A stretch of DNA of 64,000 nt. It comes from Candidatus Omnitrophota bacterium (lineage in GTDB: Bacteria > Omnitrophota > Gorgyraeia > Zapsychrales > Zapsychraceae). The translations under genes and the position numbers were made by a program. Each line of letters begins with the position of its first letter. Positions within the stretch are counted from its first letter, which is position 1. The stretch is from positions 5,275 to 69,274 of the forward strand of contig JAJDCA010000068.1 in the NCBI GenBank assembly GCA_029261055.1. Direction: 5' to 3'. Under the pieces are notes generated by a model. That model was given only the letters and a program-made list of their open reading frames with translations, did no database searches and was not told the origin of the DNA. Positions 12,081 to 35,951 of this stretch are shown here, piece after piece.

Positions 12081-12095
12081 AATCAATATAATTTT

Positions 12096-12338: not shown

Positions 12339-12346
12339 AATTCACC

Positions 12347-12607
12347 TCATGTTAATGGCTCAATTTTCTTAAGTTCTTTACCTGCCCTCGCAAATTCCCA
12401 ATCTTCAATAAGCTCTTTCTGATGGAGGTCTATCCACTCTCTAATTAATTTCCTCGCTGTTTTTGAATCTATACTTCCCCTCGTTACGTTCCCATTAAAA
12501 TCAAAAACTGCTTTATCATCTTGGTACTCAGCATGTAAATGCGGAGGATTGTGTTCATCGTAATACATTCTTATCAAAATTCCAAAAAACCTAGATACGA
12601 TTGGCAT
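12347..12607 (-). CDS. DUF4160 family protein (putative toxin)
   Basis: MPIVSRFFGILIRMYYDEHNPPHLHAEY and terminal IEPL; start set at MPIVS. Confidence 0.88.
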   Translation of the reverse strand: MPIVSRFFGILIRMYYDEHNPPHLHAEYQDDKAVFDFNGNVTRGSIDSKTARKLIREWIDLHQKELIEDWEFARAGKELKKIEPLT

Positions 12608-12768
12608 TAAAATTCCTTTCTTTAGTAATTTATAGTATTCGCAAATTAAATTCGTTAATTTTGAAATAGCCATCAGTGTCGATTCAAGGTGACCTAAAAA
12701 TCTACGTATTTGTTTTGCGAATACTATATTTAAAGAATACCATTTTTTTCCTCATCGCGCTATATTTT

Positions 12769-12874
12769 CTATTTCTTCAACAAGGTCAATTGAAGCAAAG
12801 CCGGGGGGAGTTGGGCGGGGGTGATGTTGAGGATGACGGAGACAAGGCCAGGGAAGTTGCCGGTTTGGATGTCA
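12769..12874 (-). pseudogene. Orphan giant-gene 3' tail, copy A
   Basis: 106 bp with 8 mismatches to 13425-13530 (manual count); reads DIQTGNFPGLVSVILNITPAQLPPALLQLTLLKK*. Confidence 0.92.
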
Positions 12875-13105
12875 GGTATTTGCGGCTTTGTAAAGACCAT
12901 CAATGGATAAGTCCTCATCCACATCCGGCCAATGAATGCCGTATCCTGACGGGCTTACACAATAATTTTGTTTCTGCGCTAAACTTGCGGTGGTTAGTCT
13001 TTTTGAAACCTGAGAAATATCAATAGCATATTCTTTACCATCAATTTGCAACATCATGATATTTTCTTTAAAAAAAACATTTTTGACATTATGCATCTTA
13101 TTCAT
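12872..13105 (-). CDS. DUF2442 family protein (putative antitoxin)
   Basis: SPSGYGIHWPDVDEDLSIDGL signature; start set at MNKMH. Confidence 0.85.
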   Translation of the reverse strand: MNKMHNVKNVFFKENIMMLQIDGKEYAIDISQVSKRLTTASLAQKQNYCVSPSGYGIHWPDVDEDLSIDGLYKAANT

Positions 13106-13355
13106 CTTTTCCTCCCATAAATTCATCCCACTGAGCCACAATGTAATCAAAATGATCAAATATAATTTTCCTAATACTTCTTTTATCTTGTGGACTCATA
13201 TTGTATCCATAGGCTTCACGAATTTCATAAATATCAACATCAAGCCAATACTTACACTCAGACTCTGCTTTTTTACAATGAATGTGTATCGGCTCATTAC
13301 CCTCATTAGAATAAAAATAAAGCCGCCACCCCATTATGACTAAAATTGTCGGCAT
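13098..13355 (-). CDS. DUF4160 family protein (putative toxin)
   Basis: MPTILVIMGWRLYFYSNEGNEPIHIH...CKYWL. Confidence 0.88.
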   Translation of the reverse strand: MPTILVIMGWRLYFYSNEGNEPIHIHCKKAESECKYWLDVDIYEIREAYGYNMSPQDKRSIRKIIFDHFDYIVAQWDEFMGGKDE

Positions 13356-13424
13356 GTGCATTTCTCCTTTCGCTAAAAAGGATGCCATATTTTTACATAT
13401 TGGTCAAGGAGGATTTGCATGTGC

Positions 13425-16400
13425 TTATTTCTTCGACAAGGTCAATTGAAGCAAAGCCGGGGGGAGTTGGGCGGGGGTGATGTTGAGGATGACAGGGACG
13501 AGGCCGGGGAAGTTACCGGTTTGAATGTCACGCATCTGTTGCTGCAGCATGGCTGGGTCCAGGTTTAGCTCTAAACCTTGCCCCTGAATCTGCATGTCCA
13601 TGCCTTGCGGGTCCAAGTTGATTCCACCGAGAGATGCCTTCGTCTTTTGATTCAGCATGGCGTTGTCTACATTTTTTAATTTTTCTTCCAAGCGCGATAA
13701 TGTCGCTTCATAATCTACTATTGATGAATTAGCTTCCATTCTAGCATCTTTACTCTTTATTGACCCATCATCTGGCATTGCTTTAAAATAATCCTTATTT
13801 TCTTGAAGCACCTTTTTAATTCCCTCAATTTCCGCCATAATTCTTTGTTTCTCCTCAAGACTTTTAAGCACTTTTTGTACAGCGGCTATCCTTGCGTCCT
13901 TTTCTACCGAAGATGCTCCTACTTCTTTTAAAGCCTTTGATTCTAATAGTTTATCTAACTTAGAATCATCGGTTAACATCGTTCGAAGAATTTTTATTTG
14001 CTCATCAATATTTTCATCCATTATTGTATCTTTTGGCAATTGCCCTTTAAGAACACCTATGGATGAATCTAAAATCAGCGTTCTCATAGATGAACGCGTG
14101 TCAATACTCACAGTTCCTCCATCGAGAGTCTTTCCTGTTACCATATCTTTTATTGTCTTCAGCACTTTTATGCTAACAATCGTTTCTGCTGTTTCTTGAT
14201 CAATAACTGACGTCTTTTGATTTTGCGTATTGTAATTTTCCTTATCGACAACTTTACTGTCTGACGCTTCCCGCCTTTTGCGCAGATCCTCCGACAATGT
14301 AGCGATGGCTTGATCCAATGTCGCAATTTCCTGATCCAGTTTCACGGACTCTGTAAGGTCGTCCTTCGCAGCAACCCGAGTCTTTCGCTTCTCTATCCGC
14401 TCCTCCATCGCCTGAACCCATTGTTTGGACAGATCAGATATTTCATCATCAACACCCTTCGAAACTTCTAATTGCTTATCTAACTCTATAGGATCCGCCC
14501 CTTGAGCTTTTAATGCCGCAAGCTCTGCTGTCCAATCATGAATATCTTTATTGGCCATGGCTTTCTTGGTTACTACAGCCAACTCACCCACTGTCAATGT
14601 ATACCCATCCCTTTCTTTTATTTTTGACTTAATTTTTGTCTCAAGTTCTTTTATTTTAAGCGTGCCGGCTTGTGTATTTGGCGCATCTTTTTGGTTCGAG
14701 GCCTTCGCCTCAAACGCGGCCTTTTCTTGCGCCAGCAACCCATCGATCTCCTTTTCTCTCTGATTCCATTCATCCTCAATCTCCATCCATTGGGCCGTCT
14801 CTTTTTTAAGGGCCTCGATTTTGACGGGGCGGTCGTTGTCCACCACGTCATCGCCGCCATCTAACGGCTCTGCGATTTGGCGTATATGGGCGTATTTGAC
14901 CTTGCCGTTTTCATCTTTATACATCTCTGCTGCCTCCAGACGATCCGGAGAAAACTCAAGGTCATAAGCTTTTATCTTAGTGTTTTTCTTAAATGAATTG
15001 TCAATTAATGTATGCACACTATTGCTAACTTCCTCGACTCCCCTTCCATCACCTTTTATAAACCCCACCCTTACACCTGCATTTATAATATGATGGCTAT
15101 TGGGTAAAAATTTTGCCACCTGACCATCCGCTGTCTCAAGGATGTCAATTTTCTTCCAATCGTTATCTCCAACCTTATCCTCCCATACAGTTCTATTAAA
15201 AGATGTCGTCACAATAATCATCTTCCCATCTTGGGACAACTCCAAATTCTTTACCTCTCTATTACCGGAATCAAATCCTTTATTATCAATAACGTTTCCA
15301 TCTTTGTCATGAAAATTAACGAATCCACTTTCCATGCCTGTTAAAATAAATTCACCATCTTTTGTAAACCTTGTAAAACTTGCATTGCCGCTTAAAAACT
15401 TACCTTTACCCGTAGTCATATCAAATAGATATTGCTTACCTTTTTCCGTCAATAGCACTACCTTGGTCGAATCTGAATTAATGTCGATGCTTTCGACTTT
15501 TTCTTCTAACCTCTTCCCGTTCACTTTAAATTCCTTTATCTCTTTGCTTTCATCCACAGGCACAATGCCTTGAAAATTGTCCGCAATAATCACTGACTTT
15601 TCACCATCCGGCGCGTCAACAATAAAACTTTTTTCGGGGTTAATTTGAATAGCGTTTGTAAATAATGGACGAGAACCCACATCATCTGGCAAAACATCAA
15701 CCCACTGCATAGAAGATTCACCACCAATCCATAAAATACGGCCATCCCCGGATAATTTCACCACAACATTTTCTACTCCGGCAGGAAAACTTAATAACTC
15801 TTCATCGGCTCCTTTAGCCGTATCGCGCACACGCCAATGTGGCGGCTTCCCCTGCCTATCCTCTCGCGTCAAAACAATCCTTCGCTTGACCGGAGGAGCC
15901 CCCTTCTTGCTACCATCCATCAGCCACGCAACCTGCACAATTTCCTCGTTATCTGGGGCCGTATACGGCTGAATCACCGTCATATCCTTCGCCGCTAAAA
16001 CCTTGACGGCGCGGGGTTGGCCGGTGGACATAAACTTAGCCACAGGCCAGACGGTTAAACCGCTCTTCATATGCGCCATGACGCGCAGAGGACCTTCGGT
16101 TGAAAATTCCAGTTTGGGCACGACATCTTTATCCACATTTTTCAAAGCATCTGGCGCCGGTAGCTCTATGCGCTGTTTTGTATCCATATTCTCCAGCCAA
16201 TATTTACCTTTACCATCCACGACAGCTAAATAAATCCCATCCGAAGACAACGCCAACGCCTTAACACCATCTTCAAACGGATCTGCTTCTCCTTTAAAAT
16301 CTCCTGTTTGCGCATACCACCAGCGCACAATGCCATCTTTTTTACTTACTGTCGCCACCCTGGTGCTGTCTAGCGAGTAGACCGGCCCTACATTCGCACT

Positions 16401-19400
16401 TGTATTTTTTTCTAACTCCTTCAAAGGTCTTTCATTATTAACATCCCACAACTTCGAAACCCCACCATCCTTATCCAAAATAACTATCCATTTATTATTC
16501 GGAGAAATTCTGGGCTGGACTTCGATTTTCAAACCTGTTTCTAACTTGGCTAACTGTAATAACGATATCTTTATCTTATCCACCGTTTGTTCGATTATAA
16601 CATCCCACACACTCACACCACCCTCCATATCAGTGGCTACTATTTTCTTAGATTCATATGCTCCAATATCTGGATATAATATCGGGTTAACAGGAACAAG
16701 CTTACTATCAGACCATTTTTTTGTAATATCATACACTTCAATTGCTTGACTAAAATATGTTATGATCACTTGATTGCTATCAGAAGAAAACCTTGCCTGT
16801 GATGGATTATCTGCCCCTAAATCTATGCTCGATTCAATATCGTTAAAATTCCACAACATCACACCAAAATCATGACCTGCCAACATTTTGGTTTCATCGT
16901 CAGAAATTTCAATCCATCTTACTTTAGAATACAATAATCTATCCAACAGGACTAATTCTCCATTACTTTCCACATCACGTATGTGCACCTTCCAAGTATC
17001 CTTGTCCATGATATTTGGATTGCCAGCACTTGGTTTCCCCGCGATAAATTCCTGCGTCACTACCTTACGTCCTTTCCAAAGATAAGCAATAACCTCCTCC
17101 CCCTCTGGCGGCGTATAATTCACAGGCATCCTCCTGTCTATCGCCCCTTTCTGCAAACCCTCTGCCTTTTGAGCATCCACCTCCGCCTGCACGGCAGCTT
17201 CGCTTTCTTCTTGTTTGCTCAAAGCCCGCTCACCTTCAACCAAAGATTCTTTTTTCTTTGTGAGGAAATCTTTTCGTGCCTCCCAATATTCACGCTCATA
17301 TTTTTGCAGCATGGCAGAATCTTGTTTTCTTAACTCTTCCTCTAATTTTTTCCTTTCTAACTCAAAAACTCTTTTTGTATCTCTTGAACCTTCACGTAAT
17401 TTCTCAAGACGTTCTATTTCACTTAAACTTGCTGAAGTTGCAATTTTTGCCAGTTTTGTTTCAAAATTCTCAACATTCCTCTGCTGTTCTGCAATTAATC
17501 CCTCAAGTTCCAAAATCCTTTTTCGAAGCCAATCCTTATTAGAAATATTACTATCAACCACGTCCTCTTCAGATTCATCTATCCCCAACATTTTATTAGC
17601 TTTTTCCAGCTCCGGATCCACCTCACTCACACCCTTTTTATAATCTGCCCTCGTCCTTCTCTGCACCCCTCTCAACTTTCGTAAGCCTGCTTCCAAATTA
17701 GTAATTTTTTTATCTATTTCCTCCTTCTCTTGATCCAGCTCCTCAACTAAAGCAGGTTTATTCCCCACGACCGCCCGGACCTTTACATTCCCTATCCGCT
17801 CTTTGATCGCCTGCACCAATTGTTTGGACAAGGACAGCATCTTTTTAAAGTTCTTGTCTTTGCCTTCCGGAATTTTTACTGGCTGATCTAAATCATTTGG
17901 ATTAAGACTTTCAATTTTGCCGACGCTAAACACCTGCTGTTTGCTTCCTTCTTTATTCCGCACCATTACCTGAAGCCTATCTGGATAAAACTGAATTTCT
18001 TCCGGATTAAATTTTATGTAACTCCAATTTGCTACTTCCCCTGTTTTAAAATTCCTCATGATAATAAGCGTAGTCGCACTGGGCGTATGGCTGCCAATAC
18101 TCAAAAAATGTTCATTGTCCGGCAAAAAATACCCGAACTTATTAACCATGTGCTTAAACTCTTCCCACGCCTTGGAATCTTGTTTTATCTTTTCACCTGT
18201 TTGCGCATCCCGTAATACCAATTTTCCATTTTCGTCTATGATTAGTAAAGTATCTTCGTCTGGGGATAAATCTGTGAACTTTGCTTCTTCCCATATGCCA
18301 AATCTACTTGGTTCTGCACCATTAATATTCCGTATCCACACCGGATACCCATCATCAGATTTACTTTTTTTAATGCTAATCACATTATTCCCGTCAGAAG
18401 ATAGCCTGGCTAAAGCAATCCCCTCCCTTCGAAAATCAGTTAATTCAATCCCTATTTCTGCTTCCATATTCCATACCCTTTGGGTATTCGATTCATCTAA
18501 CGTTAAAAGTGTTTTGTTATCTGAAGAAAGCTGTTTGTAGCGTATTTTGCCTTCTTGAGAAATTTGTGAAAATTTAGGACTTCCACTTTTTTCCCAGTGC
18601 CATGTTGTGACAATGCTTTTTTCTGTTTGACTACCTATGGGGCCCTTCCTTGATCCAATGACAATTTCTTTTCCATCGGATGAAAATGACAAGGAGGAAA
18701 TAAAACCGGTAACCTCAGTACTGTTTACAAAGGTACGCTTGGTATCATCTTCAACACTCCATACATCAACCTTATGATTTGTTGTTGATCCGGATTTTAA
18801 CGCTATTTTTGTTCCATCAGGGGACAACCGAACAACATTTTTTTCTAAAGTATCAAATTTGGGAAAAAGCTCTTTATTATCTTTCGTATCTCGAACCCTC
18901 CACTCATAAGCCTTAATAATATCTTGTGTATTAAGATCAGCTAGCTCAATTTCTTTCCACGTCAAAGCCCTCTCGCTCTCTGGCCAATAATCCACAATCG
19001 TCTCTCCGGGTGGCGCTTCATAGGCGGGGTTGATGGGAGACAGTTTAGGCGTGCCGTCCGGTTGATCTTGTTCATTTTGTTCAGCTGCTTGAACTTTTAA
19101 CGCCTCAAGTTCTTTTATTTTAGCAAGTGTGTTCGCGTCTCCCTGCGTCTCTTCCTCGGCTGATTCTTTAGGCGCCTCGCGATCAACCTTCTTTTGTATT
19201 TTCACTAATTCTGCGTCAATTCCTTTCGCCCGCGCATTTAATTCAATCTCCATCAACCGCCTTTGTTTTTCCTCTTCTTCAAGGGCCTTGATTTGGGCGG
19301 GGAGGTTATTGTCCGAGGGAGGCGCATCATCGTCAGTCGACTCTGCGATTTGGCGAATGAACACATGTTTTATTTCTCCATTTTCTGTGTATGTCTCGGC

Positions 19401-22400
19401 TTGTTCGAGATTGTCAGGAGAAAAAACAATGTCATCTTGAATTATTTCTCTCTTCTCATCCTTATCCTTTTTATATTCCTCCTCGAAAGGATAATCAACA
19501 AAACCAACATCACTTTTCCCCTCATATGTACCTATTGTAGGCATCGTCCGTTTTGATCCAGAAAGAATATTTTCCCCCACCATAACGGTTTTTCCATCTG
19601 GCAAAATTTTCTGATTCCCATGCAAATAGTTTTCCTCTGGAATCCAATCTTTAATATTTTCATCCCACTTCCATAATTTCCACCTACCATCCATTTTTAC
19701 ATTCACCTTGTGCATAATTTTTCCATCCCAAACAACATCCAAATCCTGTACAGGCTCATTGCCAGCGTTAATGCTTTTAAATTTTTCTTCTGTTTTGACA
19801 TCTTCAAAATCTACTGTTTTGGCATCTTCAAAAAGAACAAATCCGTTGTTCGTTCCTCTCAAAGAAACCTGACCATCTTCTGTAAATTTTGAAAAGACAA
19901 CATTAGCGTGATATTGAAGATGCGATCCTGTATTCATATCAAATTTATAACTATTATCATGATTCGTTAAAACTGCTGCGTATTGCGAATCCGAAGAAAT
20001 CTTCACATTTAGTACTTTGAGTCCCCCCTTAGCGAACGGTTCTTCCCCGAGAGCATCTTTAAATTCCTTCTCGTCTTGCCCATCTAAATGCACAATACCC
20101 TGAAAATTATCTGCAATAATGACAACTTTATTGCCGTCTAAGGCATCCTCGACTTTATGAATACGCCCTAAATTTTTACGAATCTCCTTCCAATCATCTT
20201 GAATCAAACTCGATGAAACAAAAAGCTTTCCATTTTTTTCTGCGTCAAATAATTTCTTACCATCTTTGGAAAATTGAAGAGTTCCTGTTGACATAACTGG
20301 CCTTAATAAATTTTCATCATTTTCATTCTTTCGTGCAATATCCCGCACTTTCCATACTTGCAGCTTATTTAACGTCAAAACAACCCTTCGAGTGACCGGC
20401 TCAGGCCCCGTATCATCTTCCACCCACGCATGCTGTACAATTACCTCCCCCTCCGGCGCGGTGTACGACTCTTTCACCTTCATTTGATCGGCTGGTAAGA
20501 CTTTGACTTTACTGACATCGGACGTATCATTTTTAGACATAATATTACGAATCGTCACATATTTTCCACGTCCATCATGGTTATAAATTTCCATCTGCGC
20601 AAGCTGGCCATGAATCAATTGAATATCGGCTAACTCAAGTATTTCAAGATCAGAATTAAGAGGCGCATCCATTTTATAGGTGCGCAAACCATCTGTAAGA
20701 TACAAACCAGCTGTTGCATTTCCCTCTGGAGCGTCTCTGAAAAACATAATATGCTTGCTATCCGGTAAAAACTTGGCTCTAATTGCATTCTCGAGTGAAT
20801 AATTCTCGTCTAGCGTCCATTCTCCAGAAATCGCATCTTTTTTCCATACAGTTATTTTGCCAAACTTTGCCTTAACAATTAATTTATTTTTATCCAAAGA
20901 TCTTTCCAAATATTCTATGGAATCATTTCCTGGCAAATTAAAAACATCTTTGGTCTCTTCTCCAGTATGGGAATCGCGAAATGAAATACCCCCACCTATT
21001 TTTCCAATTAAAACTACTTCATCATCTAAAGAAAATTTAGCAAAATTTATATTTGAATATTGCGATCTATAGATCCGTTCTCCATTTTCAATATTAATAA
21101 GATACACATTATAGTCAAACATCACGAAAGCAGCGAGTTTCCCATCTTTTGAAATTTCAATACTTTTCATATTCCCTTGCATATCTTTTAAAGGAATATC
21201 TTTACCTCCATTTAAACTTACAACACCTTGAAAATTCTTGGACATAACAAGAATACCCTTCTTAACTTTCTTAAGCTCAATCCCTCTCACAAGATCTAAA
21301 TTTTTATTTATTTTTATCCAATCATCCTCCTCTTTATTTACATATTTATAGCTAACCCCCTCTGACGTTGCCATCATCAGAATTCCCTCTTTAGATAATG
21401 TAAAACCATCATACTGACCAAGCGTTTCTTCTACTTTTGGAGTCCCCTCAATCATAGCTTGACCTTCAAAATTGCGCATTTCTCCCCAAACCCGCCATAC
21501 CACTTTCTTTTCACCATTATTTTCGATATCTTCACGCGTTACCACATACCAGAAGCCAGAATAATTTAATTCCACAAATTCGACAACACTTTCATTTTCC
21601 GAAATCCCCCAAGATTCAATATTTTCTTTTATTTTCTCCACAGGCAAAATTTCATCCTTACTGCCTTGTGTTGTCTGAGCATTCTCTGGCTCCAACTCCG
21701 CTTTCGCTTGTGCCACTTTCTTCTTATTAACCAACGCCTGCTTGCCTTGAACTCGGGAGTCTATTCTCTCTGTAAGCAAAGCTCTTCGAGCCTCTAAGTG
21801 TTTGCGTTCGTGCTTTTGCATACCAGAAGAAACTTGTTTTTTAAGAAAATCCCTTAATTGATTAATTTCACCTTCAAAAATTTCTTTTAATTCTATTTCA
21901 TGTTTAATTGAGTTTTTAAGATTTTGTAGTGTCAGGCCATTTCCAGAAGCATCCTTTATTTCTTCGGCTTTGATCGCTTCCTTTAATTTTTTAATTTTTT
22001 CTTCCTGTTTCGCAATTAAAGCTTCTTTTTCCTTAATAATATTTCTAAGCTGCTCCTGATCATTTGAAACACCACTAATCCTCTGTCCCAACATCACATC
22101 AACTTTCTCTAATTCCACTCTATCCGCCGCAAGCTCCCCATCATAATCGTCTTCCGTCATATCAATAACACCGGAGAGAGGTTGTTTTAATTCCTGTATC
22201 TTCTTCTCAACATGCTCAAGCATATCTTTGAAAAGATCTTTGTATGTTTCATTACGCAACAGGGGTGGAACCTTTTCCAAAGACGAAAGTTTATCTTCTT
22301 TTAGCTTATTGATTTGTTTAAAAAATTGATCTTTTAGATCCTTAACAGCACTTTTCTTCCCTTGCCCCATAGCTATCCGCCCAATTAAATCTCTTATGGA

Positions 22401-25400: not shown

Positions 25401-28400
25401 GCCCTCACCATCCACGACGGCTAAATAACGGCCATCATGAGAAAGGGCCACGGCTTTAACACCTTTTTTATGTTGCTTGGTTGCTTTTATTAATGCACCT
25501 TTTTCCGCATCCCATACACGCACTACCCCCATTTTACTAACTGTGGCTACCCTAGTGCTGTCCCGGGAAAAAACAGGCTCTAATGCGGCTTTAGTATTTT
25601 TTTCCAAATCAAGCACCCGCTTTTCTTTCTCAACATCCCACAACTTCGAAACCCCTCCATCTTTATCTAAAATAACCATCCTCTTATTATCCGGAGATAT
25701 TGTGGGTTGGACCTGAATTTTTAAACCTGTCTCTAACCCGAATCTGTACCCACTTTTAATATCCTTTACCCTCACCATGCCCTCTTCATCAGTCGCTATA
25801 ACCTTGGTTCCATCAGGAGAAATATCCGGATGCAACATTGGATCGTTAGGTAAACTCGATGATGTGGGGGATGTCGTGTCTATAGTATCAAATAGATCAT
25901 ATCTTCCACTATTCGTTGTCCTAAACACATGATTACCATCCGGCAAAAGTTTTGCAAAAGGATAATTACCTAAGTCAATACTTTCATCCTCACCTTTTAA
26001 GTCCCACCACACGAATTTTCCATTATCATCCTTTGTCAGTATTTTTGTTTCATCATCAGAAACACCTACCACTTTCGCATCAAATCTATGACCCCTATTC
26101 CATGTGACTAACTCAATATTTTTCATATCACGTATGCGCACGTTACGAGAAGCACTCGATGCGCCAATCTCCTTCTCCTGCGTCACCACCTTGCGGCCGT
26201 TCCAAAGAAACCCAATAACTTCCTCCCCTGGCAGTGGTTCATAATTTATAATCCCTTCCGTGTCCACCGCTCCTTGCTGCAATGCCTCTGCTTTCTGAGC
26301 CTCCACAGCCTTCGCCTCTTCTGCTTCTGCCGCTATTTCCTTAATCAACGCCTGTTTACCGTTAACCACCGCTATCAGTTTCTTTGTAAGAAGTTCCTCT
26401 TGTTTGTTTGGCCCCTGAACTTGAAGCTCGAGTTCTTTTATTTCTGCTTCTAATTCCTTTTCCCTTGTTCTATCTGGGAGAGCAACACCAGTTTCTAAAG
26501 TAATATCGCTTATATGTTGCTCTTTCACTAATTCCTTCTTAAGCCCTTCTATATTTCCAACCCCTTTTGACGGCTTACGAATTTTTATTAATTCTTTTTT
26601 CACTTCACTCTCAACCTTTTCGTAATCCTTCAGCGTTCTCTCGATATCTACAGGGCGGGATTGTTTTAATTCCTGTATCTTCTTCTCAACATGCTCAAAT
26701 ATATCTTTAAAAAGATCTTTGTGTGTTTTCCTGCTCAACAAAATTTGAACCTTTTCTAGAGGCTCAAGCTTATCTTTTTTCAAATCGGTGATCTTTTCAC
26801 GCAATTCCTTTTTTAGCTTACTAACAGCCTCCTCATCATTTTTCTGAAAATCTATCCACCAAATTAATTCTCCTATGGATAGCATGGAAAAATCTAACTC
26901 ATCCAATCCTTTCGTAAATTCAGGATCATAGGAATCTTCGATTTCCTTCATTGTTTGGTCAAAGAATGCGGCCGACCAATCGCGTTGAATACCCAAATTC
27001 TTAATAAGATCTTTCGTTGCATTCATTCTGTTCTTATTTCCCTCTTTATGTTGTTCCCATGTTTCGCCTTTACTTCGATAATTTAAAATAAAATCAATTT
27101 GATCCATAACCTTCTTCATCATAATCATTCGACTGCGTTGTTCCTCGAATTTCTTTAGTTCTTTCCATGATTTTTCGCTCAATAACTCTGCGATAATTTC
27201 ATTAAGATTTTCAATATTTTGCTCTGTTTGGCTTTCAAATGTATTGGTCCATAAGAGCTGGAGAATACGGTCTAATTCCGGATGACCTGTATCCGGCTCT
27301 TTGCCTTCTTCAATTTTCAAATTCTGAATAATGACACTTTCTTTATCAAGAAAATCAGAAATGGCATCAACGTCAGGATCATCACTAAACAATCCTTTTT
27401 CACCGGCCACATCTAAAATATTATTCTCGACCGGTGAAGTTTGATCAAAGTCACCCTCTATTTTAAAGGCCTTCATAAATTGTTCATGGATAATACGTTC
27501 TGAAATTTTTGTTTTGGCTCTCTTTTTAAAAGACTCACTCTTTTCTGTCCCTGTCTTTGCAATTTTTTGCAATCCATCAGCCCTCAAATAATTAAACCGA
27601 TCCACTAAAAACTTCACGTCTTTCACCAAAACACGCACACTGATTTCACGACGTTTAGGCAGAGTGGTACCGTCCAAAGATTGCCGATAATTTAACTCCT
27701 GCGCCATACCGATAATGCCGTCATATTTGACGCTTCCGTCAGGATAAGTTTCGTACTCTACATCGCTTACTTCTTGCTCCGACTTAGGAATCGGCATTCC
27801 GATAAGACGCGGATTAAGCCGCACCACTTCGCCGGTTGAATCTAGCTGTTTGGTTGAAACTTTACTTAAAAGTTTAAACATCAAGTGCGGCGGTAAAGGA
27901 TCAAATTGAATGGCAGGAAGACGTGCCAATAAATCTGCGGGAAGGCCCTTGATACCAGACGTAGAACCCGGGGTATTGCTTAAAGCAATCAATCCAAAAT
28001 TATCTGCCCCCTTACGCTTTTTATCCTTTTTCGTCGGATCAGGAGTCTCATCATATACAATCACATCATTCAAAGCACTAAGCACTTTATCTCTGGACTG
28101 CGCAATTTCTTCAACGATCAACACATTGCCTTCTCCATGCTCATCTTCCATAGCTAGCGGTAAGGCATTGATAGTTATCTTTGAATTACCACCCACCATC
28201 CCCTCCTGAAACGTAATCTGATCGAGCCGTGTTTGTGCTGTCATCTCAATCGTATGTTCTCCCGGTTTATTGCGCAGACGTACAATGGCCTTTGCTAACG
28301 TACTCTTTCCGCCCCCCGGGCCACCCACAAAATGAACTTTAATCTTCAATGCCTGCAATTGCAGCGTTAAATAAAGTTTCCCTACATTGGCTTTCAAATA

Positions 28401-31400
28401 CGTATTGACTTCATTTACATCCTTGGCCACATCAGCAAATTCAATCCAGTCAATAATCTCTTGCGGCAGGCCGGCATAATGAAAAGAAGCTTTAGAATGA
28501 ATAGGCAGCCTTATTTCATCCCAGAATTCTGTATTTTTTGGTGTAATAATGATTTCTTTGCCGGAAGGAGAAAGCTTAAAAGAATCTTTTGTTAATTCTA
28601 AATCCGGCACATTCAATTCATCCGGGCGCCAGGATGAAAAGTGCGTAATATTGCCGGCATACGTATCATTACTATCAATTTCCGCATGAAAATTAAAATA
28701 ATTTTTGATGGTGGTGAATGGACGGTACAACCAGTCTTTTTCATATTTAATTAAATGTTGAATCATAAAGGCCGTTAGCCGTGGATCCGGTGCACGTGTA
28801 AGCCGCTCCCCCTTAGAGTTGTCCGGACCATTTTCAAAAAGATCCCTGATCTTGGAGTCCCATCGCATTTGCGTGGCCAGATAACGTGGATCTAAAAGCT
28901 CCCAATCCTCAAAAATCGCGGCTTGTTGTTCGGGGCTGTATCCAAAAAAAGTCAAACGCAACTCATTGGAAATACGCACTAAATCCGTAATGTCTTGGGT
29001 AATTTTTTGTTCAAACTCCTCCCATCGATCATCATAGGTGCCTACATGTCTAGCAAATTTCAGGGCATCGGCCAATTGCCATTCAGCTTCTTCTTCGGTA
29101 GACTGCCAATGATATAAAATATTTTCATCCCGTTCCTGCATTGCCGTATTATTGGTGGTCCAATTTCCTGTAATGTTAGGCCACGGCGGATTTTCTGTGG
29201 TAATAATCCTGGACATCGGATGATCGCGCATCGTTTCAAATGTAACCATACCATCCCGCTCAACTTTCCACTCATGCGTCTTGGCGGGAATATGTGATTT
29301 GATGCCATCCCAAACACCCGGCTCATATTTATGTCGTTCATTCTCTATAATCCATCCCCCCACATGCTTCACATAATTTAATAAAGACGGTTTAAACCCG
29401 GTTGTCCCATTTTGCAAGGTCCGTGTCCCACGCGCAAGCCCTTCATCGGTTGCATCTTCATTACCGGTTTCTGAATACGTCGGCATATTAATTAACCGGG
29501 CTGCCGCAGACGGCATTTTGGTTTTGGCTAAACCCGGGCCTCCGGACAAAGTAACGGTCTGCCCTTCCCATGAGTCGGACATGCTATCCTGACTAACGGT
29601 TAAATCATACAACACCTGCCATGAACTTTTTTCCCGTTCAATAATCAAAACCCTTTTTTCCTGCCGGTTAAACGCCAAAATACGATTTGAATCTTGTTCA
29701 TAAAAATACCATTGCGTCAAATCCAAACCTTTCAAATCACCTAAACCTTGAAAATCACCATTCTCCTGACTGAGTAAAACCTTTTCTGAACTCTGTTCTA
29801 GTTTCACCTGTAACTTCTGAGTGTTTTCATACACCCCTTGATTTTCAACCATATGATCTGCGGAATCAAAAGCATGCAGGAATTTTAAATATCCATCCTC
29901 TTTATTTTCTTCCATCACCTCCAATTTTCCATCCTCAATACCATGAATAAAATATTTACCATCGGTGGAATAATCTGTGGGTGACCGTTGATCCGGCCGA
30001 TGTGTCGCCAAAAGAATATTAATTATTTTATCTTCATTAGCCTCTGTATCTTTAATCACTGTTGTCGGCACACCCATGCCACCCGGTCCCATTGGAAAAT
30101 ACAATGGATCCACACCTTCCCGTTGAAACATGAGCTTTTCTTGACCATTCACTTTTTTATTAAAAAAGTGACGATACTCTTCGGTTGTATTCAACTCTGA
30201 ATCTTCAACCACCATGGAAGCATCTTTTAATTGCAAATATTTTTGCCAATCACTGTCTGAAACAAACCCACTCTTTTCAATGGCCGTAAAAATGGCATCA
30301 CCCACTCTGGAAGGAAGCCCTGTGAAAGGAAACGGCTCAATCACCCGCTGCAACTGCCCCTTGGGTTGTTGATGCAACACTTTAGTATCCTCAACCTGCT
30401 TGGCCGTACCCATAGGGATAATAAACACATTAATGCCATGCTCTCTGGCCTTATTAATCAGCCCAAGAATTCTGGATTTTTGATTAGGATCAACATCTTC
30501 ATCCGTTAAAATAAATAAAATTTGCACGCCTTTTTTTTCGCTTCGCTCGGCCGCTGCAATCTGACTTGTAATATATTTCTCTAGATTATCGGCATAATGC
30601 GTGCCACCTCCTGCCTCCAAATTGGTCCACGCCCCATGCAATACCTTTTCTCGTTTAACATTGGGCTCTCGGATAGTCTCGCGTAATAATTGCAGATCTT
30701 TATCATCATCGGAAAAATAACCAACCTCATACCCAAGATCATCATCCACGATTACCTTGCGCATTTCATAATGTTGAAAAATAGAATCGGTCAAGACAAA
30801 GGATATGATACGTGCCATTTCAATCGGCAAATAATTGCTATTTTTTCTATCTTTCTCCCCCATGCTATAACTGCGATCAACCAATAAAGTAATATCCAAG
30901 GGTAATGGATCTTTTTTAATCGGATTATTATATCCCTGCGCACCCAGAAAAACATTAAGCGGCTGGGTCATAATCGCTCCATTGTCCAATAATTGACTTA
31001 ACTTAAAGCCGGTTGTTGCGATCAACAAGGCCTTAAACTGACGGGTTAGGCGCTTAACAAGCGTTCTAATCGTCACAACTGGTTTTCTTTTTAAAATATT
31101 TATAATGCTTAAAATTTTATTTAATGTTTTATTTTTATCGTCATATTCTGAAAATTTCTCTCTAAATTCTTTTTCATTAAAATTTTTACTAATTTGATGA
31201 TTCTCAAGAAATCCTTCTATTTCCATTTTCTCAATTAATTCTTCCCCATCAATATCCAAATCTCGAAAATGCTCCACTTGAAGAGTTCTGCCTTCGGATA
31301 TTTGCTTTTTATACCATGTTTGTAATTCGCGATGCTGCGTCTTATCCAACCCGCTTGTGGCTTCAATCTGTGCTTCTTCACGCAACTTGGCTGCCTTTAA

Positions 31401-34400: not shown

Positions 34401-35873
34401 AATCACATCCTCTTTAATCAAACGAAGCAAATTATCATCCGACATTTTCTTTACCGCCTGACTTAAAGGTTCCACAACTCCAATCCTGCGTTCTTGAGCC
34501 GCTTCAAATGCTTCGAGATTATTCTGATCTAACGCCATTAACATCTCTTGTTTTAAGGCATAATATCCCACGATCGATTCTTCCGGTGTTTTTACCTGCT
34601 CTAACATAGCATCGTCCGTTTTCACAATATCCCGTTCGAAATTCTTCAAGACACTTTCCGCTCTCACAAGACCTCGTTCATTGATCGCCTGATAATTGAC
34701 GGCCACCATGGCCTGATCTTCGAAACTTAATTGAGCAAAGTTAGTGATTTTTTGATACGCTTGATCAATCTGGTTTTCAAATTCAAACCCACCGGCAAAG
34801 TATTTGCGGGGAATAATGGTTTCGGTGGCGGCATCGTATTCTTCGCGGATGTAGTCGTAGACGCCTTTTTGGAAGGCTTCGAGGTATTGTTGGTAGATTT
34901 TTTCTTTGTTGATGTCTTCGGACTTGTCGACGCCGGCGGTCTTGCTTTGATTGACATACGCCTGTCCTAATAGTCCGTCTTTGAGTGTTCGTTTGTACCA
35001 CGTGGCGAGAATCATGGCATGGACGATTTGGCGGAGAGGCGCGAAGTGCTGACCTTCGTTAACTTCGCGTTCGATTTCGGGGAGAAGGATTTCACGGATA
35101 ATGGATGTGGTAATATTTGAATTCGTAGGGGCATGATTTATCATGCCCTTGTCTTGGGTTTGATGAATCAAACCCCTACGATCCGCGCCTTCCCTAAACA
35201 AATAATCCTCTTCCAACATCACCTTCAACCGCGACTCCACCACCCACGCGGTGCTTCCTTCTTCGTAAACAATCGCCTTCTCCGGTACGATCCAAACCTT
35301 GTTAAAGGTATTCACCGGGATATCGGTGACACCGTACTCTTCGTACGCCTTTTGATAAATTCGTTCCCAGAATTCTTCCCCCAGATCATCTTCCGGATAC
35401 ATGAGGGTGGATGTCAGTTGTTTGAGCAGATAATCCTGCGCCAGTAAATCCATACCCATTTGTGTTTGCGCTAAATCATCGGCAATAATACGGTCTTTTT
35501 CGTAAGGAGATAAATTGACCCAAAGGTGATCATCGGGAATAGTGAGGGCGGCCAGGAAATATTTGAGCAATTTGCCATATTCTTCTGTCTGGGCTTTCTT
35601 CGCAAGCACATCTTCGCCCTGATCTATCAGAAAATCCATCTGTAACGGATTCTGCAGATCCAGCTCAACCCCCATCAAAAGAGGCGGTGCATAGGCAGAC
35701 GGGCTTAAAGGCACCATCGCCCCAGGCACAGGCATGGCCGGTAATATTTGTGCAAGTCCGCTTAGAGGCATCGTCATAGTAAATATAATGACCATACCTA
35801 CAACTACACAGCGAAACGGCACACCGAATCGTTTTTTATGAATTATTCTTAACATATTGGTCCTATTTAGCAA
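13425..35873 (-). CDS. Giant 7482-aa multi-module protein: signal peptide, N-terminal domain, HEXXH + VWA module, tandem MoxR-like AAA module, WD40-like beta-propellers with coiled coils, short C-terminal tail (GGINL...FPGLVPVILNITP)
   Basis: Single open frame of 22,449 bp. HEIGH at 33957-33971; MIDAS DRSYS at 30864-30878; Walker A GGPGLAKT at 29520-29543 and GGPGGGKST at 28299-28325; many S-P-D-G/N and W-D blade motifs between 26300 and 14850. Confidence 0.9.
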   Translation of the reverse strand: MLNRTNMLRIIHKKRFGVPFRCVVVGMVIIFTMTMPLSGLAQILPAMPVPGAMVPLSPSAYAPPLLMGVELDLQNPLQMDFLIDQGEDVLAKKAQTEEYGKLLKYFLAALTIPDDHLWVNLSPYEKDRIIADDLAQTQMGMDLLAQDYLLKQLTSTLMYPEDDLGEEFWERIYQKAYEEYGVTDIPVNTFNKVWIVPEKAIVYEEGSTAWVVESRLKVMLEEDYLFREGADRRGLIHQTQDKGMINHAPTNSNITTSIIREILLPEIEREVNEGQHFAPLRQIVHAMILATWYKRTLKDGLLGQAYVNQSKTAGVDKSEDINKEKIYQQYLEAFQKGVYDYIREEYDAATETIIPRKYFAGGFEFENQIDQAYQKITNFAQLSFEDQAMVAVNYQAINERGLVRAESVLKNFERDIVKTDDAMLEQVKTPEESIVGYYALKQEMLMALDQNNLEAFEAAQERRIGVVEPLSQAVKKMSDDNLLRLIKEDVIDRKIADPLLVGMHIPGKGVGLDMNVLKEELRRVGQKEHLFKTQQHIDTIQKEMASALSDNPAEEKAIMKMLDETIKPYNFDSYLPEHFWRESFKDLEGRKKIAAAIVQMPVAFGQSKGAFAPDTGNVLISPIEDELMMRLVLPHEIGHKILKMPPEWEQITFAISVMEYVQHAGKNLKEGEEKLPHDVDKFGEPAVSELYQRGKEMGLSGQTGFMIHPGTSDRRAGYFVMDYLEMEVEKVYEAKGLRKDALNDEYTRKRAMGFLVGGIMMGMSENQKDVNPLRLFKDFLDVLYERYGDPTKDNPQLASELEKIDQEWQEYAKRLAAKQEVEFIPAPYGFWTYKSLDSSVGQMHYVKTDRYPRTYDGENKDDLKGKLQAARDRTLGQVFLAISRVKFGLRGLIDDLNEDIKKHPDALLMWDTLLFPKVSGIGHDVNAENIKHRAFEQKFDGSRKWMSRILQDRYDIGNPLIEEAQYNTYDLHLRYLDSLLYLRYHYKENQQGNMKDPRNKNPQVEDALVRSMGKDVNDDGWIKLMYRPESLKQGDIIRIINEKVGPVYLELYAEAFKEKKRRRLHERKKKEEQDRREEQLKQGIKEIAKEIVRKVYEELTEEERKELDEYGKNLPQEIQKVIEDAVREDMEQGKKSFENLSQPGGGSGSSQKTSAASSGQGSSQGSGQGQVSPGATPKSTDDIENALKDFEQQLNAIASNTNTIAKKLDDIKKKSGDVTPGKMSESDKNTSKKLSKEIQQQAKGIQDKSQDLLNKGRLAAGEGSAQNEKVSQIQQGLPSPELANEAKKLSNGVDKKSQEQLEKLQNLKDKANKLKHIADNLVKQTHAPSPDVPQITDETEKLNKALNNVNKGVDQTQGANRDVLRNLHQLEKSIQGIQQSLSGSKDKGEPGKKENKKGEDNKNNKGGEDGQGKQETSSSQASQDMNKSSGSKSEPAKAGETQKGAKDRSKNYQKMPDTINLPDVKPLGETGKKQEALPPSDIKPIKPKEFDLKAAKLREEAQIEATSGLDKTQHRELQTWYKKQISEGRTLQVEHFRDLDIDGEELIEKMEIEGFLENHQISKNFNEKEFREKFSEYDDKNKTLNKILSIINILKRKPVVTIRTLVKRLTRQFKALLIATTGFKLSQLLDNGAIMTQPLNVFLGAQGYNNPIKKDPLPLDITLLVDRSYSMGEKDRKNSNYLPIEMARIISFVLTDSIFQHYEMRKVIVDDDLGYEVGYFSDDDKDLQLLRETIREPNVKREKVLHGAWTNLEAGGGTHYADNLEKYITSQIAAAERSEKKGVQILFILTDEDVDPNQKSRILGLINKAREHGINVFIIPMGTAKQVEDTKVLHQQPKGQLQRVIEPFPFTGLPSRVGDAIFTAIEKSGFVSDSDWQKYLQLKDASMVVEDSELNTTEEYRHFFNKKVNGQEKLMFQREGVDPLYFPMGPGGMGVPTTVIKDTEANEDKIINILLATHRPDQRSPTDYSTDGKYFIHGIEDGKLEVMEENKEDGYLKFLHAFDSADHMVENQGVYENTQKLQVKLEQSSEKVLLSQENGDFQGLGDLKGLDLTQWYFYEQDSNRILAFNRQEKRVLIIEREKSSWQVLYDLTVSQDSMSDSWEGQTVTLSGGPGLAKTKMPSAAARLINMPTYSETGNEDATDEGLARGTRTLQNGTTGFKPSLLNYVKHVGGWIIENERHKYEPGVWDGIKSHIPAKTHEWKVERDGMVTFETMRDHPMSRIITTENPPWPNITGNWTTNNTAMQERDENILYHWQSTEEEAEWQLADALKFARHVGTYDDRWEEFEQKITQDITDLVRISNELRLTFFGYSPEQQAAIFEDWELLDPRYLATQMRWDSKIRDLFENGPDNSKGERLTRAPDPRLTAFMIQHLIKYEKDWLYRPFTTIKNYFNFHAEIDSNDTYAGNITHFSSWRPDELNVPDLELTKDSFKLSPSGKEIIITPKNTEFWDEIRLPIHSKASFHYAGLPQEIIDWIEFADVAKDVNEVNTYLKANVGKLYLTLQLQALKIKVHFVGGPGGGKSTLAKAIVRLRNKPGEHTIEMTAQTRLDQITFQEGMVGGNSKITINALPLAMEDEHGEGNVLIVEEIAQSRDKVLSALNDVIVYDETPDPTKKDKKRKGADNFGLIALSNTPGSTSGIKGLPADLLARLPAIQFDPLPPHLMFKLLSKVSTKQLDSTGEVVRLNPRLIGMPIPKSEQEVSDVEYETYPDGSVKYDGIIGMAQELNYRQSLDGTTLPKRREISVRVLVKDVKFLVDRFNYLRADGLQKIAKTGTEKSESFKKRAKTKISERIIHEQFMKAFKIEGDFDQTSPVENNILDVAGEKGLFSDDPDVDAISDFLDKESVIIQNLKIEEGKEPDTGHPELDRILQLLWTNTFESQTEQNIENLNEIIAELLSEKSWKELKKFEEQRSRMIMMKKVMDQIDFILNYRSKGETWEQHKEGNKNRMNATKDLIKNLGIQRDWSAAFFDQTMKEIEDSYDPEFTKGLDELDFSMLSIGELIWWIDFQKNDEEAVSKLKKELREKITDLKKDKLEPLEKVQILLSRKTHKDLFKDIFEHVEKKIQELKQSRPVDIERTLKDYEKVESEVKKELIKIRKPSKGVGNIEGLKKELVKEQHISDITLETGVALPDRTREKELEAEIKELELQVQGPNKQEELLTKKLIAVVNGKQALIKEIAAEAEEAKAVEAQKAEALQQGAVDTEGIINYEPLPGEEVIGFLWNGRKVVTQEKEIGASSASRNVRIRDMKNIELVTWNRGHRFDAKVVGVSDDETKILTKDDNGKFVWWDLKGEDESIDLGNYPFAKLLPDGNHVFRTTNSGRYDLFDTIDTTSPTSSSLPNDPMLHPDISPDGTKVIATDEEGMVRVKDIKSGYRFGLETGLKIQVQPTISPDNKRMVILDKDGGVSKLWDVEKEKRVLDLEKNTKAALEPVFSRDSTRVATVSKMGVVRVWDAEKGALIKATKQHKKGVKAVALSHDGRYLAVVDGEGKYWLQDLEKKGNERTELPALDALQKLEKDEVPELEFSRDGEHHVKAHVKGGLNVWPVADFMSSAPAFKPKDAEEVHSYSEDGLRVLTVEKEYAYTKMVKHYRWHVRYVKGGKELRVFEWPKAYVELSPGGTKVLMQHHRDGEIIDVKTGEKISSENVYDRVSHKWLIDDAHPEAGAGQDKNTVQGDIKVLPAKDMKVIQTYTAPDGEEIMQVAWEMDGNGDVPVKRRVVLTEAEADDPNSKVMRVRDIEQEESVDPLREDTVSKEEKSKISKDGNRFLFATPDGVFRENLEGEPRGGVRYEFGKIEQFEDSSDSNKVVVIAENFKGIAYLDGRSKETQEFKVNGEELEGEVESIDISPDSDSSKALVLTKSKALYLFNMETGEGFMLQGDSVSFAKFSRDGQFILTGSEDGRVSIKSPHTGALKIEGLQVSDAVQDIELSFNKKELIVATKGFKARYEWKPDARKWDPLSSVVVEESKFLPDGQIMTAGVLDKGKPALGVISGNGPVHRINDLGKLKNVENMQVKGLNISPDNLEQATTWQEGDQTKHVLIHEIAKDVGGGSAFSGSDLSDKIEAFKKEKKKWAAQKAKYLKQEQSFDEQLALEKKNAELAAANDLKNKVGSGKIVLEALDVYTAPPGETIVDYSPQSGLVLTEDNIVRANGKNHWIVRDVRKGGDEVNSFDLLVTNSAHLSPDGTKVAKEVWKDKPSQRKIELWEVRKIDKGKPLATSKEGEFDDFSFSEDGSRIIMEKNTKDHNDKKTIVWNWAIDDESDLLSLGNAGISVVSKLSDNNRWLFMSLKGKIGIGTLAFRNMDTKSEIQQEHSVSFAKFSRGSKYLMFVQGKNVILRDLNTGINSPPILVSAAGEIVDLELSPNGKTLLTRNKEGKLHVWDVMTGERIMPASPAWINLSITLLNLGAVFLDNEHFFGIGKSNNIGIVNARTGEIYGKLMENKFSQREAKFFPHQNQAVIFNEDRTQLQPFVVRGGGGEVLNSGKKDAAMLSIRDLIGRIAMGQGKKSAVKDLKDQFFKQINKLKEDKLSSLEKVPPLLRNETYKDLFKDMLEHVEKKIQELKQPLSGVIDMTEDDYDGELAADRVELEKVDVMLGQRISGVSNDQEQLRNIIKEKEALIAKQEEKIKKLKEAIKAEEIKDASGNGLTLQNLKNSIKHEIELKEIFEGEINQLRDFLKKQVSSGMQKHERKHLEARRALLTERIDSRVQGKQALVNKKKVAQAKAELEPENAQTTQGSKDEILPVEKIKENIESWGISENESVVEFVELNYSGFWYVVTREDIENNGEKKVVWRVWGEMRNFEGQAMIEGTPKVEETLGQYDGFTLSKEGILMMATSEGVSYKYVNKEEDDWIKINKNLDLVRGIELKKVKKGILVMSKNFQGVVSLNGGKDIPLKDMQGNMKSIEISKDGKLAAFVMFDYNVYLINIENGERIYRSQYSNINFAKFSLDDEVVLIGKIGGGISFRDSHTGEETKDVFNLPGNDSIEYLERSLDKNKLIVKAKFGKITVWKKDAISGEWTLDENYSLENAIRAKFLPDSKHIMFFRDAPEGNATAGLYLTDGLRTYKMDAPLNSDLEILELADIQLIHGQLAQMEIYNHDGRGKYVTIRNIMSKNDTSDVSKVKVLPADQMKVKESYTAPEGEVIVQHAWVEDDTGPEPVTRRVVLTLNKLQVWKVRDIARKNENDENLLRPVMSTGTLQFSKDGKKLFDAEKNGKLFVSSSLIQDDWKEIRKNLGRIHKVEDALDGNKVVIIADNFQGIVHLDGQDEKEFKDALGEEPFAKGGLKVLNVKISSDSQYAAVLTNHDNSYKFDMNTGSHLQYHANVVFSKFTEDGQVSLRGTNNGFVLFEDAKTVDFEDVKTEEKFKSINAGNEPVQDLDVVWDGKIMHKVNVKMDGRWKLWKWDENIKDWIPEENYLHGNQKILPDGKTVMVGENILSGSKRTMPTIGTYEGKSDVGFVDYPFEEEYKKDKDEKREIIQDDIVFSPDNLEQAETYTENGEIKHVFIRQIAESTDDDAPPSDNNLPAQIKALEEEEKQRRLMEIELNARAKGIDAELVKIQKKVDREAPKESAEEETQGDANTLAKIKELEALKVQAAEQNEQDQPDGTPKLSPINPAYEAPPGETIVDYWPESERALTWKEIELADLNTQDIIKAYEWRVRDTKDNKELFPKFDTLEKNVVRLSPDGTKIALKSGSTTNHKVDVWSVEDDTKRTFVNSTEVTGFISSLSFSSDGKEIVIGSRKGPIGSQTEKSIVTTWHWEKSGSPKFSQISQEGKIRYKQLSSDNKTLLTLDESNTQRVWNMEAEIGIELTDFRREGIALARLSSDGNNVISIKKSKSDDGYPVWIRNINGAEPSRFGIWEEAKFTDLSPDEDTLLIIDENGKLVLRDAQTGEKIKQDSKAWEEFKHMVNKFGYFLPDNEHFLSIGSHTPSATTLIIMRNFKTGEVANWSYIKFNPEEIQFYPDRLQVMVRNKEGSKQQVFSVGKIESLNPNDLDQPVKIPEGKDKNFKKMLSLSKQLVQAIKERIGNVKVRAVVGNKPALVEELDQEKEEIDKKITNLEAGLRKLRGVQRRTRADYKKGVSEVDPELEKANKMLGIDESEEDVVDSNISNKDWLRKRILELEGLIAEQQRNVENFETKLAKIATSASLSEIERLEKLREGSRDTKRVFELERKKLEEELRKQDSAMLQKYEREYWEARKDFLTKKKESLVEGERALSKQEESEAAVQAEVDAQKAEGLQKGAIDRRMPVNYTPPEGEEVIAYLWKGRKVVTQEFIAGKPSAGNPNIMDKDTWKVHIRDVESNGELVLLDRLLYSKVRWIEISDDETKMLAGHDFGVMLWNFNDIESSIDLGADNPSQARFSSDSNQVIITYFSQAIEVYDITKKWSDSKLVPVNPILYPDIGAYESKKIVATDMEGGVSVWDVIIEQTVDKIKISLLQLAKLETGLKIEVQPRISPNNKWIVILDKDGGVSKLWDVNNERPLKELEKNTSANVGPVYSLDSTRVATVSKKDGIVRWWYAQTGDFKGEADPFEDGVKALALSSDGIYLAVVDGKGKYWLENMDTKQRIELPAPDALKNVDKDVVPKLEFSTEGPLRVMAHMKSGLTVWPVAKFMSTGQPRAVKVLAAKDMTVIQPYTAPDNEEIVQVAWLMDGSKKGAPPVKRRIVLTREDRQGKPPHWRVRDTAKGADEELLSFPAGVENVVVKLSGDGRILWIGGESSMQWVDVLPDDVGSRPLFTNAIQINPEKSFIVDAPDGEKSVIIADNFQGIVPVDESKEIKEFKVNGKRLEEKVESIDINSDSTKVVLLTEKGKQYLFDMTTGKGKFLSGNASFTRFTKDGEFILTGMESGFVNFHDKDGNVIDNKGFDSGNREVKNLELSQDGKMIIVTTSFNRTVWEDKVGDNDWKKIDILETADGQVAKFLPNSHHIINAGVRVGFIKGDGRGVEEVSNSVHTLIDNSFKKNTKIKAYDLEFSPDRLEAAEMYKDENGKVKYAHIRQIAEPLDGGDDVVDNDRPVKIEALKKETAQWMEIEDEWNQREKEIDGLLAQEKAAFEAKASNQKDAPNTQAGTLKIKELETKIKSKIKERDGYTLTVGELAVVTKKAMANKDIHDWTAELAALKAQGADPIELDKQLEVSKGVDDEISDLSKQWVQAMEERIEKRKTRVAAKDDLTESVKLDQEIATLDQAIATLSEDLRKRREASDSKVVDKENYNTQNQKTSVIDQETAETIVSIKVLKTIKDMVTGKTLDGGTVSIDTRSSMRTLILDSSIGVLKGQLPKDTIMDENIDEQIKILRTMLTDDSKLDKLLESKALKEVGASSVEKDARIAAVQKVLKSLEEKQRIMAEIEGIKKVLQENKDYFKAMPDDGSIKSKDARMEANSSIVDYEATLSRLEEKLKNVDNAMLNQKTKASLGGINLDPQGMDMQIQGQGLELNLDPAMLQQQMRDIQTGNFPGLVPVILNITPAQLPPALLQLTLSKK
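35125..35179. repeat. GTAG-type REP doublet (REPIN-like) inside the giant gene
   Basis: GTAGGGGCATGATTTATCATGCCC (35125-35148) plus inverted GGGTTTGATGAATCAAACCCCTAC (35156-35179); the first is the exact reverse complement of 42017-42040. Confidence 0.8.
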
Positions 35874-35951
35874 ATAAAGAAGGATATGTTAAGTGTGCCA
35901 TATTTTTCAGCGCAATGCCAAAAAATGTTTTGGGTAGGATTTTAGAAAGGG

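Follow-up and report, generated by a model that had tools for sequence, protein, structure and literature searches.

The question raised by this locus is whether a single, very long bacterial gene encodes one protein or a chain of several and, if the latter, what divides them. The window, by which we mean the whole stretch of 64,000 nucleotides analysed here, carries on its reverse strand a giant open reading frame (ORF), for which a first-pass annotation proposed that a D-x-(A/S)-M motif marks the module junctions and that the product may be a processed polyprotein.

Architecture of the giant gene

The gene is composed of the following parts (window coordinates, strand and description).

13425..35873, (-), giant ORF of 7,482 codons with a TTG at its start; counted from the earliest ATG, at 35855, the product has about 7,476 aa
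35751..35855, (-), predicted Sec signal peptide (aa 7-41, by hydropathy scan); paralogs have a similar leader
34788..35738, (-), conserved head domain (aa 46-362), common to 71 ORFs of the genome
30216..34607, (-), module 1 (aa 423-1886), with HExxH (aa 635), a low-complexity linker and a vWA-like domain with DxSxS (aa 1666)
26886..30215, (-), module 2 (aa 1887-2996), an AAA_5 (dynein/MoxR-related) ATPase with P-loops at aa 2111 and 2517
22407..26885, (-), module 3 (aa 2997-4489), coiled coil and WD40-like beta-propellers
17313..22406, (-), segment 4 (aa 4490-6187), coiled coil and propellers
13659..17312, (-), segment 5 (aa 6188-7405), propellers and coiled coil
13428..13658, (-), conserved C-terminal tail of about 80 aa, GG[IV][DN][LF]...G..P.I

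Contigs of run X1 cover window positions 16000-35900 at roughly 30x without differing letters or gaps, an agreement that is not independent because this run is probably the source of the DNA. In the hydropathy scan the leader is the sole hydrophobic segment of the protein, and the only cysteine lies in the signal peptide, leaving the mature chain free of it. The HExxH and DxSxS motifs of module 1 are both retained in all three aligned homologues; the vWA-like call draws on DxSxS and an Atlas lead to VWA clusters (score 0.85), and a Pfam search gave no match. Module 2 matches PF07728 with an E value of 2e-13 and its homologues show two AAA_5 stretches; protein searches returned no stand-alone homologue of it, which is weak evidence. 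The tail, considered also as a possible C-terminal domain of type IX secretion, has no match in Pfam or NCBIfam.

Downstream of the gene (window 11391-13501) lie four direct repeats of its last 60-119 bases, 80-90% alike over a 60-base core and spaced by 621-759, each pair of which brackets small gene pairs; one of the small genes has a DUF4160 match, and the arrangement looks like toxin-antitoxin-type cassettes successively inserted at the 3' end of the giant gene. Directly upstream (window 35989-38098) are an AAA_14/DUF4143 gene and a PIN/Phd pair. Within the head, aa 234-247 (window 35132-35174) form a variable loop with a short insertion that is letter-identical in several paralogs, and the depth of run X1 rises sharply at this point, which would suit a small repeated DNA element inserted in frame.

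Motif sites in the giant protein

Eight sites of the motif occur in the protein, seven of which had been listed in the first-pass annotation.

34707..34718, (-), junction DQAM, aa 386, directly behind the head
34605..34616, (-), junction DDAM, aa 420, opening the peptidase-vWA module
30213..30224, (-), junction DASM, aa 1884, at the joint of the vWA and AAA modules
26883..26894, (-), junction DFSM, aa 2994, opening module 3
22404..22415, (-), junction DAAM, aa 4487, opening a duplicate of module 3
17310..17321, (-), site DSAM, aa 6185, between propeller blocks but in the middle of a coiled coil
13656..13667, (-), junction DNAM, aa 7403, 13 residues ahead of the GGINL motif of the tail
13548..13559, (-), eighth motif DPAM, aa 7439, within the conserved tail and absent from the earlier list

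All seven listed sites were verified at their residues and coordinates, each followed by L or V, and the five cargo segments, put at about 1100-1700 aa, measure 1464, 1110, 1493, 1698 and 1218 aa. The extended pattern D-x-[AS]-M-[LV] occurs eight times; over 2,000 shuffles its mean was 0.23 and a count of eight was never attained, whereas plain D-x-x-M is at chance (16 versus 12.7 expected). As this pattern was picked after viewing the giant protein, the independent test is provided by its paralogs.

The sites are not all equivalent. The modules opening at 2994 and 4487 are 51% identical over 92 aa in an alignment that starts at the motif, so that DFSM and DAAM, which open two copies of one duplicated module, are not independent. 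DSAM 6185 is the weakest, as it lies roughly 190 residues into the coiled coil of a third module copy whose own homologous start (around aa 5992) is free of the motif; in the paralogous module the position aligned with it lacks the motif, and it may be a chance or secondary site. Thus, the claim that the motif marks module junctions holds at most sites, the exceptions being DSAM 6185 and DPAM 7439 inside the tail.

A family of head-tail paralogs

With its first 360 residues as query, the giant gene proved to be one of 71 paralogs in its genome. Their common anatomy is a hydrophobic leader, then a head of some 315 aa with RKYF[SA]GG at its end, a variable cargo that is unrelated between members, and a tail starting with GG[IV][DN][LF]. 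The proteins range from 400 to 7,650 aa and are nearly devoid of membrane helices, and cysteine makes up 0.035% of their cargo compared to 1.03% of other ORFs. This anatomy, for which export is predicted, agrees with the earlier suggestion that the proteins of what would be a whole operon leave the cell as a single chain.

A profile search with the head found 8,233 representatives at 50% identity. Titles of 14 related loci name Omnitrophota (nine), uncultured Planctomycetales (four) and Lysobacterales (one), and head matches were found in 17 of 151 sampled genomes of the phylum, including all six others of the same order. The structure model of the head (pLDDT 76.8, pTM 0.80) is a single globular alpha/beta domain. 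It has no match in Pfam, NCBIfam or PDB sequences, and Foldseek returned nothing at E 0.001 or better; the best VIA-align hit has a Z of 3.6 with an rmsd of 4.9 over 74 residues, and Atlas gave unnamed clusters only, all under 0.9. These missing matches do not establish a new fold for the head. The head-tail family is apparently undescribed.

Two further observations concern the family's loci. A divergent member in another genome (L165:9141-10385, G058) consists of a head and a short tail-less extension without cargo, directly behind an ORF of 2,946 codons, and 12 AAA_14/DUF4143-like genes adjoin family genes across the genome of the window.

The motif in the paralogs

For the cargo we counted 69 members, leaving out two truncated ones; without the protein of the window there are 68. 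In the cargo of the 69, D-x-[AS]-M occurs 193 times compared with 13 expected, and a further 39 copies lie in tails and five in heads; it is present in 63 proteins and absent from six. The frequency check that had been proposed along with the motif gives 186 occurrences versus 11.7 expected in the cargo of the 68 other paralogs. Each fixed position is strict, including the Met, as D-x-[AS]-L occurs only 35 times in the 68 compared to 44 expected. In the 1,648 other ORFs a slightly narrower pattern is near chance (49 versus 34), and several of its occurrences are fragments of family tails.

The positions agree with a role at module edges. In 49 of 59 complete paralogs the first motif lies within 76 aa of the head end, and in 41 the last lies within 39 aa of the tail; closely spaced pairs also occur. 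A Pfam scan of 60 paralogs, 22 of which had matches, placed no motif in a domain core (the domain minus 10-12 residues of tolerance) compared with 3.9 expected. One motif lies nine residues inside the end of a PPDK_N match; elsewhere, a receiver domain is bracketed by motifs at 1030 and 1162, and a CYTH match that ends at 789 is followed by a motif at 794. A 44,966-codon ORF (G000:C73:4324-139221), which matches a C39 peptidase close to its beginning, does not use D-x-[AS]-M as its junction word.

Junctions and dialects across genomes

Relatives of the AAA module were found in five of 150 other genomes of the order, four of which (G274, G178, G269 and G213) combine it with the same peptidase-vWA cargo in the same kind of protein. 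Junctions of the first three were aligned and those of G213 read from the sequence. Junction 420 is in register in all of them (DDAM here, DMAM in G274, DEAM in G178, DNAA in G269 and DHAM in G213), as is junction 1884 (DASM here, then DSAM, DAAM, DEAT and DGAM in the same order), and at both junctions the codons have changed. At junction 2994 the match is exact in G269 (DSAS) and shifted in G274 and G178, whose motifs lie 20 residues before and 11 after it; none was seen in G213. The homologous gene of G213 is in pieces soon after junction 1884, in a repeat-rich stretch (L159:3721-9618 and L160:943-15042), and either faulty assembly or a genuine break may account for this.

These comparisons bear on the reading of the motif as a scar that gene capture or the shuffling of modules has left in the DNA, with start Met and signal peptides left over from the captured genes. 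Protein homology does start and stop at motifs, and the cargo ahead of junction 420 differs between genomes, which indicates an exchange of modules at these points; the Ser codons of position 3 are also mostly TCN (62 of 72). Yet AGY codons are present there, if fewer than in the background, the Asp and Ala codons track the genome background, including its preference for GCC before ATG, and the bases flanking the motif show no conservation. At junction 1884 the peptide is retained in five genomes while its two sides stay together, not exchanged, with flanks that are 16-36% identical; this argues for selection on the peptide and against a pure shuffling scar, an explanation that we regard as highly improbable and that the first-pass annotation had offered as one of its three options. 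The junction code is real and under selection as peptide, not as DNA.

The code differs between genomes. D-x-A-M words are enriched in G136 (44 versus 1.4) and G126 (38 versus 1.3), whereas other genomes use other junction words: N-x-A-V in G145, Ser runs in G076 and G054, and S-S-P in G140, G148, G092 and G058. No clearly enriched word was found in G138 (13 proteins), G088 (two) or G132 (three). Across 115 database members both D-x-[AS]-M (138 versus 23.5) and S-S-P (142 versus 16.4) are enriched; 59 of them lack D-x-[AS]-M, some of which use S-S-P, a word that occurs four times in the 69 paralogs of this genome. For G269 the dialect D-x-A-[AST]-hydrophobic was defined on one protein, fixed beforehand and tested on 20 other paralogs from 32 matches, where it occurs 124 times compared with 9.2 expected; D-x-[AS]-M shows no excess there (9 versus 7.1). 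With a register picked by eye, every dialect conforms to the scheme small/polar-x-[AS]-small or Met or Pro-hydrophobic.

It has been suggested that the pieces are Met-initiated subunits, which suits the dialect of this genome but not G269, which has Ala, Ser, Val or Thr at the Met position, nor the S-S-P genomes. The same difference weighs on a further reading, in which translation begins internally at the motif ATG, or the bond is skipped there by the ribosome, so that separate or nested products arise without a protease. It would account for the strict Met in this genome and for the alignment with natural start Met described below. However, Shine-Dalgarno-like words precede 20 of 193 motif ATGs and 93 of 1,459 other internal ATGs, compared with 20 of 52 true family starts, and no stop lies ahead of the motif ATG. 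As such words are few at motif ATGs and other dialects dispense with Met, internal initiation is unlikely, and we accord this reading very little probability.

In a tree of 178 heads, the 64 of this genome fall in several places among S-S-P users, with weak supports. A single column distinguishes the dialect classes, Asp versus Glu in the T-D-I-P motif of the head (p 2e-6, uncorrected for kinship). Because the heads of the genome are scattered and one column only differs, we rejected the head as the setter of motif specificity and prefer a shared reader; the dialect follows the genome, not the paralog, which is explained most simply by one shared reader per genome.

Evidence for the proposed cleavage

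Judged from sequence, the family proteins are probably exported polyproteins, cut at D-x-A/S|M by one putative shared protease. The bond between Ala/Ser and Met is placed by inference. Among the three options of the first-pass annotation (protease cleavage, a secretion or translocation signal, and a shuffling junction) cleavage is the best supported.

Three lines of evidence bear on it. First, when the 217 motif-to-motif segments were compared with free-standing genes of the genome, 13 found a match and 204 did not. In three of these 13 (two receiver domains and one phosphoglycerate kinase) the motif Met lies within two residues of the first Met of the free-standing gene, and in three more it lies 7-16 residues away; the other seven matches are deep inside segments.

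Second, signals follow the motif. Tat and Sec signals act near the N-terminus of a protein. Across all collected members, six of eight internal Tat-like motifs follow a junction at a distance of no more than about 30 aa, compared with 0.7 expected, five of them at 5-6 residues, and 18 of 43 hydrophobic segments lie within 45 aa after D-x-[AS]-M, compared with 5.5 expected. None of the eight Tat-like motifs comes from the genome of the window, and the giant protein itself is without an internal signal.

Third, enrichment directly behind the proposed cut is seen for M, A, S, V, T or P and not for the N-degron set, given as L, F, W, Y, R and K in the available text of PMC9382460. A cut after the Met instead would leave Leu first in 38 of 193 cases.

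Two readings in which the chain is not divided have to be weighed against these lines. The motif could be a punctuation or binding signal for an export machine or chaperone during threading, the chain staying uncut; this would account for the genome-level dialect, the position at module edges, the extra copies in tails, the closely spaced pairs and the missing protease candidate. It leaves unexplained why complete Tat- or Sec-like signals stand straight after the motif, why the motif coincides with natural start Met and why N-degron residues are avoided, and we consider it unlikely. Alternatively, the motif could be a site of post-translational modification in linkers, such as glycosylation or transpeptidation, from which no module is released. 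A short, genome-specific, peptide-level motif that is often Ser-rich in other dialects would suit such a role, but D-x-A-M, the form met most often, offers no fixed hydroxyl or amide for modification, position 3 can be either Ala or Ser (121 versus 72 of the 193 cargo motifs), and the internal signal peptides would be left without explanation; this, too, is quite improbable.

Candidate proteases and a proposed route

With cleavage by a shared protease as the preferred reading, we considered several candidates. The head was rejected as a protease, as it has no family, sequence or structure match and neither a Cys nor a His that is invariant; divergent members have another residue in place of the Ser in its WVNLSP motif. 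The HExxH domain of module 1 was rejected as a general protease, as it is cargo of this gene and lies outside the shared head and tail. A dedicated neighbour gene was rejected in turn: recurrent neighbours of the paralogs in this genome are limited to AAA_14/DUF4143 genes, two-component genes and toxin-antitoxin pairs, nothing recurs across 21 loci of other genomes, and in neither set is a peptidase gene a repeated neighbour. The genome has peptidase matches (three S26, five trypsin-like, four S8 and one C39), none of which is linked to the motif. Likewise, eight secretin, three VirB10-like and one TatC match were found in this 3.7-Mb, 94.65% complete genome, none tied to the family, and FlhA/SctV had no match in it.

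In the mechanism that we propose, the leader would route the chain unfolded through Sec, a passage that would explain the 30-fold shortage of cysteine in the cargo, and head and tail would serve as its address for a dedicated export route. The cut between Ala/Ser and Met would then be made by a factor whose gene lies at another place in the genome or in the host. The pieces would begin at natural N-termini and act in a cytoplasm, most likely that of a host or prey cell, which would supply ATP and partners to AAA ATPases, kinases and receiver domains and in which the exposed Tat or Sec signals would be usable. The giant gene would thus yield a peptidase-vWA protein, a tandem AAA ATPase and two or three propeller proteins, a MoxR-vWA-propeller-like set that is encoded by separate genes in other bacteria.

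Relation to known systems

Giant proteins of Omnitrophota have been described at sizes of 20 kb, 10,000 aa or at least 30,000 aa, with many membrane helices and C39 or S8 domains, in the available text of three papers (bioRxiv 10.1101/2023.11.21.568195; bioRxiv 10.64898/2026.06.07.730766; Seymour et al., PMC10066038). As far as that text goes, the likeness is in the phylum and in long ORFs that join unrelated domains, including AAA_5 and WD repeats, whereas the family described here has 400-7,650 aa, few membrane helices, a head and a tail, and a defined motif. West-Roberts et al. (bioRxiv 10.1101/2023.11.21.568195) propose cleavage and state, in the accessible part of the preprint, that the cleavage points are unknown. 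The words 'motif', 'cleav' and 'polyprotein' do not occur in the main text of bioRxiv 10.64898/2026.06.07.730766, a full-text search for Omnitrophota together with polyprotein returned no paper, and the junction motif was not found in the literature searched, which lay outside most subscription journals and the supplements of both preprints. Archaeovorin-type giants exceed 30,000 aa and carry many membrane helices and C39/S8 and SecA-like domains; by contrast, the giant protein has 7,482 aa, one hydrophobic segment and no C39, S8 or SecA-like Pfam domain.

As in MARTX toxins, going by the part of their description available to us, conserved ends surround a variable train of modules, which in those toxins are released by proteolysis. 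Unlike them, the giant protein embeds no cysteine protease domain (C80), its mature chain having no Cys and no segment a Pfam match to this domain, and it matches no repeat family; its head is one globular domain and its tail about 80 aa long. The family further differs from MARTX in its Sec-type leader, some 70 paralogs per genome, cargo of housekeeping type and a motif apparently read in trans.

Viral polyproteins encode many proteins in one ORF, with a short motif at the junctions, small residues at the cut and internal signal sequences. The family resembles them in its recurrent short motif, the small residues at the proposed cut and its internal signals, but it is cellular, chromosomal and multi-copy, shows no in-chain protease common to all members, and has a dialect that follows the genome.

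In MoxR-vWA beta-propeller ternary systems the components are separate genes, with a propeller fused behind the vWA domain (Kaur et al., PMC7159879, in the text available). The cargo of the giant gene, a vWA-like domain with the MIDAS residues DxSxS, an AAA_5 ATPase of the MoxR clade and propellers, resembles such a system, as described there, without being one: its vWA domain stands behind an HExxH domain, a junction separates it from the AAA module that comes next, the ATPase occurs twice, and everything lies on one chain with a leader.

Implications

This work adds the junctions of the giant protein in register across genomes and a genome-level dialect, tested on held-out proteins, within one family. 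A defined, genome-specific motif makes the proposed cleavage directly testable, and it offers a rule for dividing thousands of long unannotated proteins (8,233 head representatives) into foldable units. The phylum is described as host-dependent in the accessible text of PMC10066038, and we tentatively suggest, as a possibility that may well not hold, that in host-dependent Omnitrophota of this order dozens of head-tail genes make up a delivery system of a kind not yet described and export across the cell envelope unfolded, Cys-free trains of ordinary-looking modules, which a protease with a genome-drifting code releases inside host or prey as pieces with stabilising N-termini, some of them with Tat or Sec signals for the translocases of the host. 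Delivery into other cells, if it is true, would give bacterial epibionts a new means of reprogramming their hosts.
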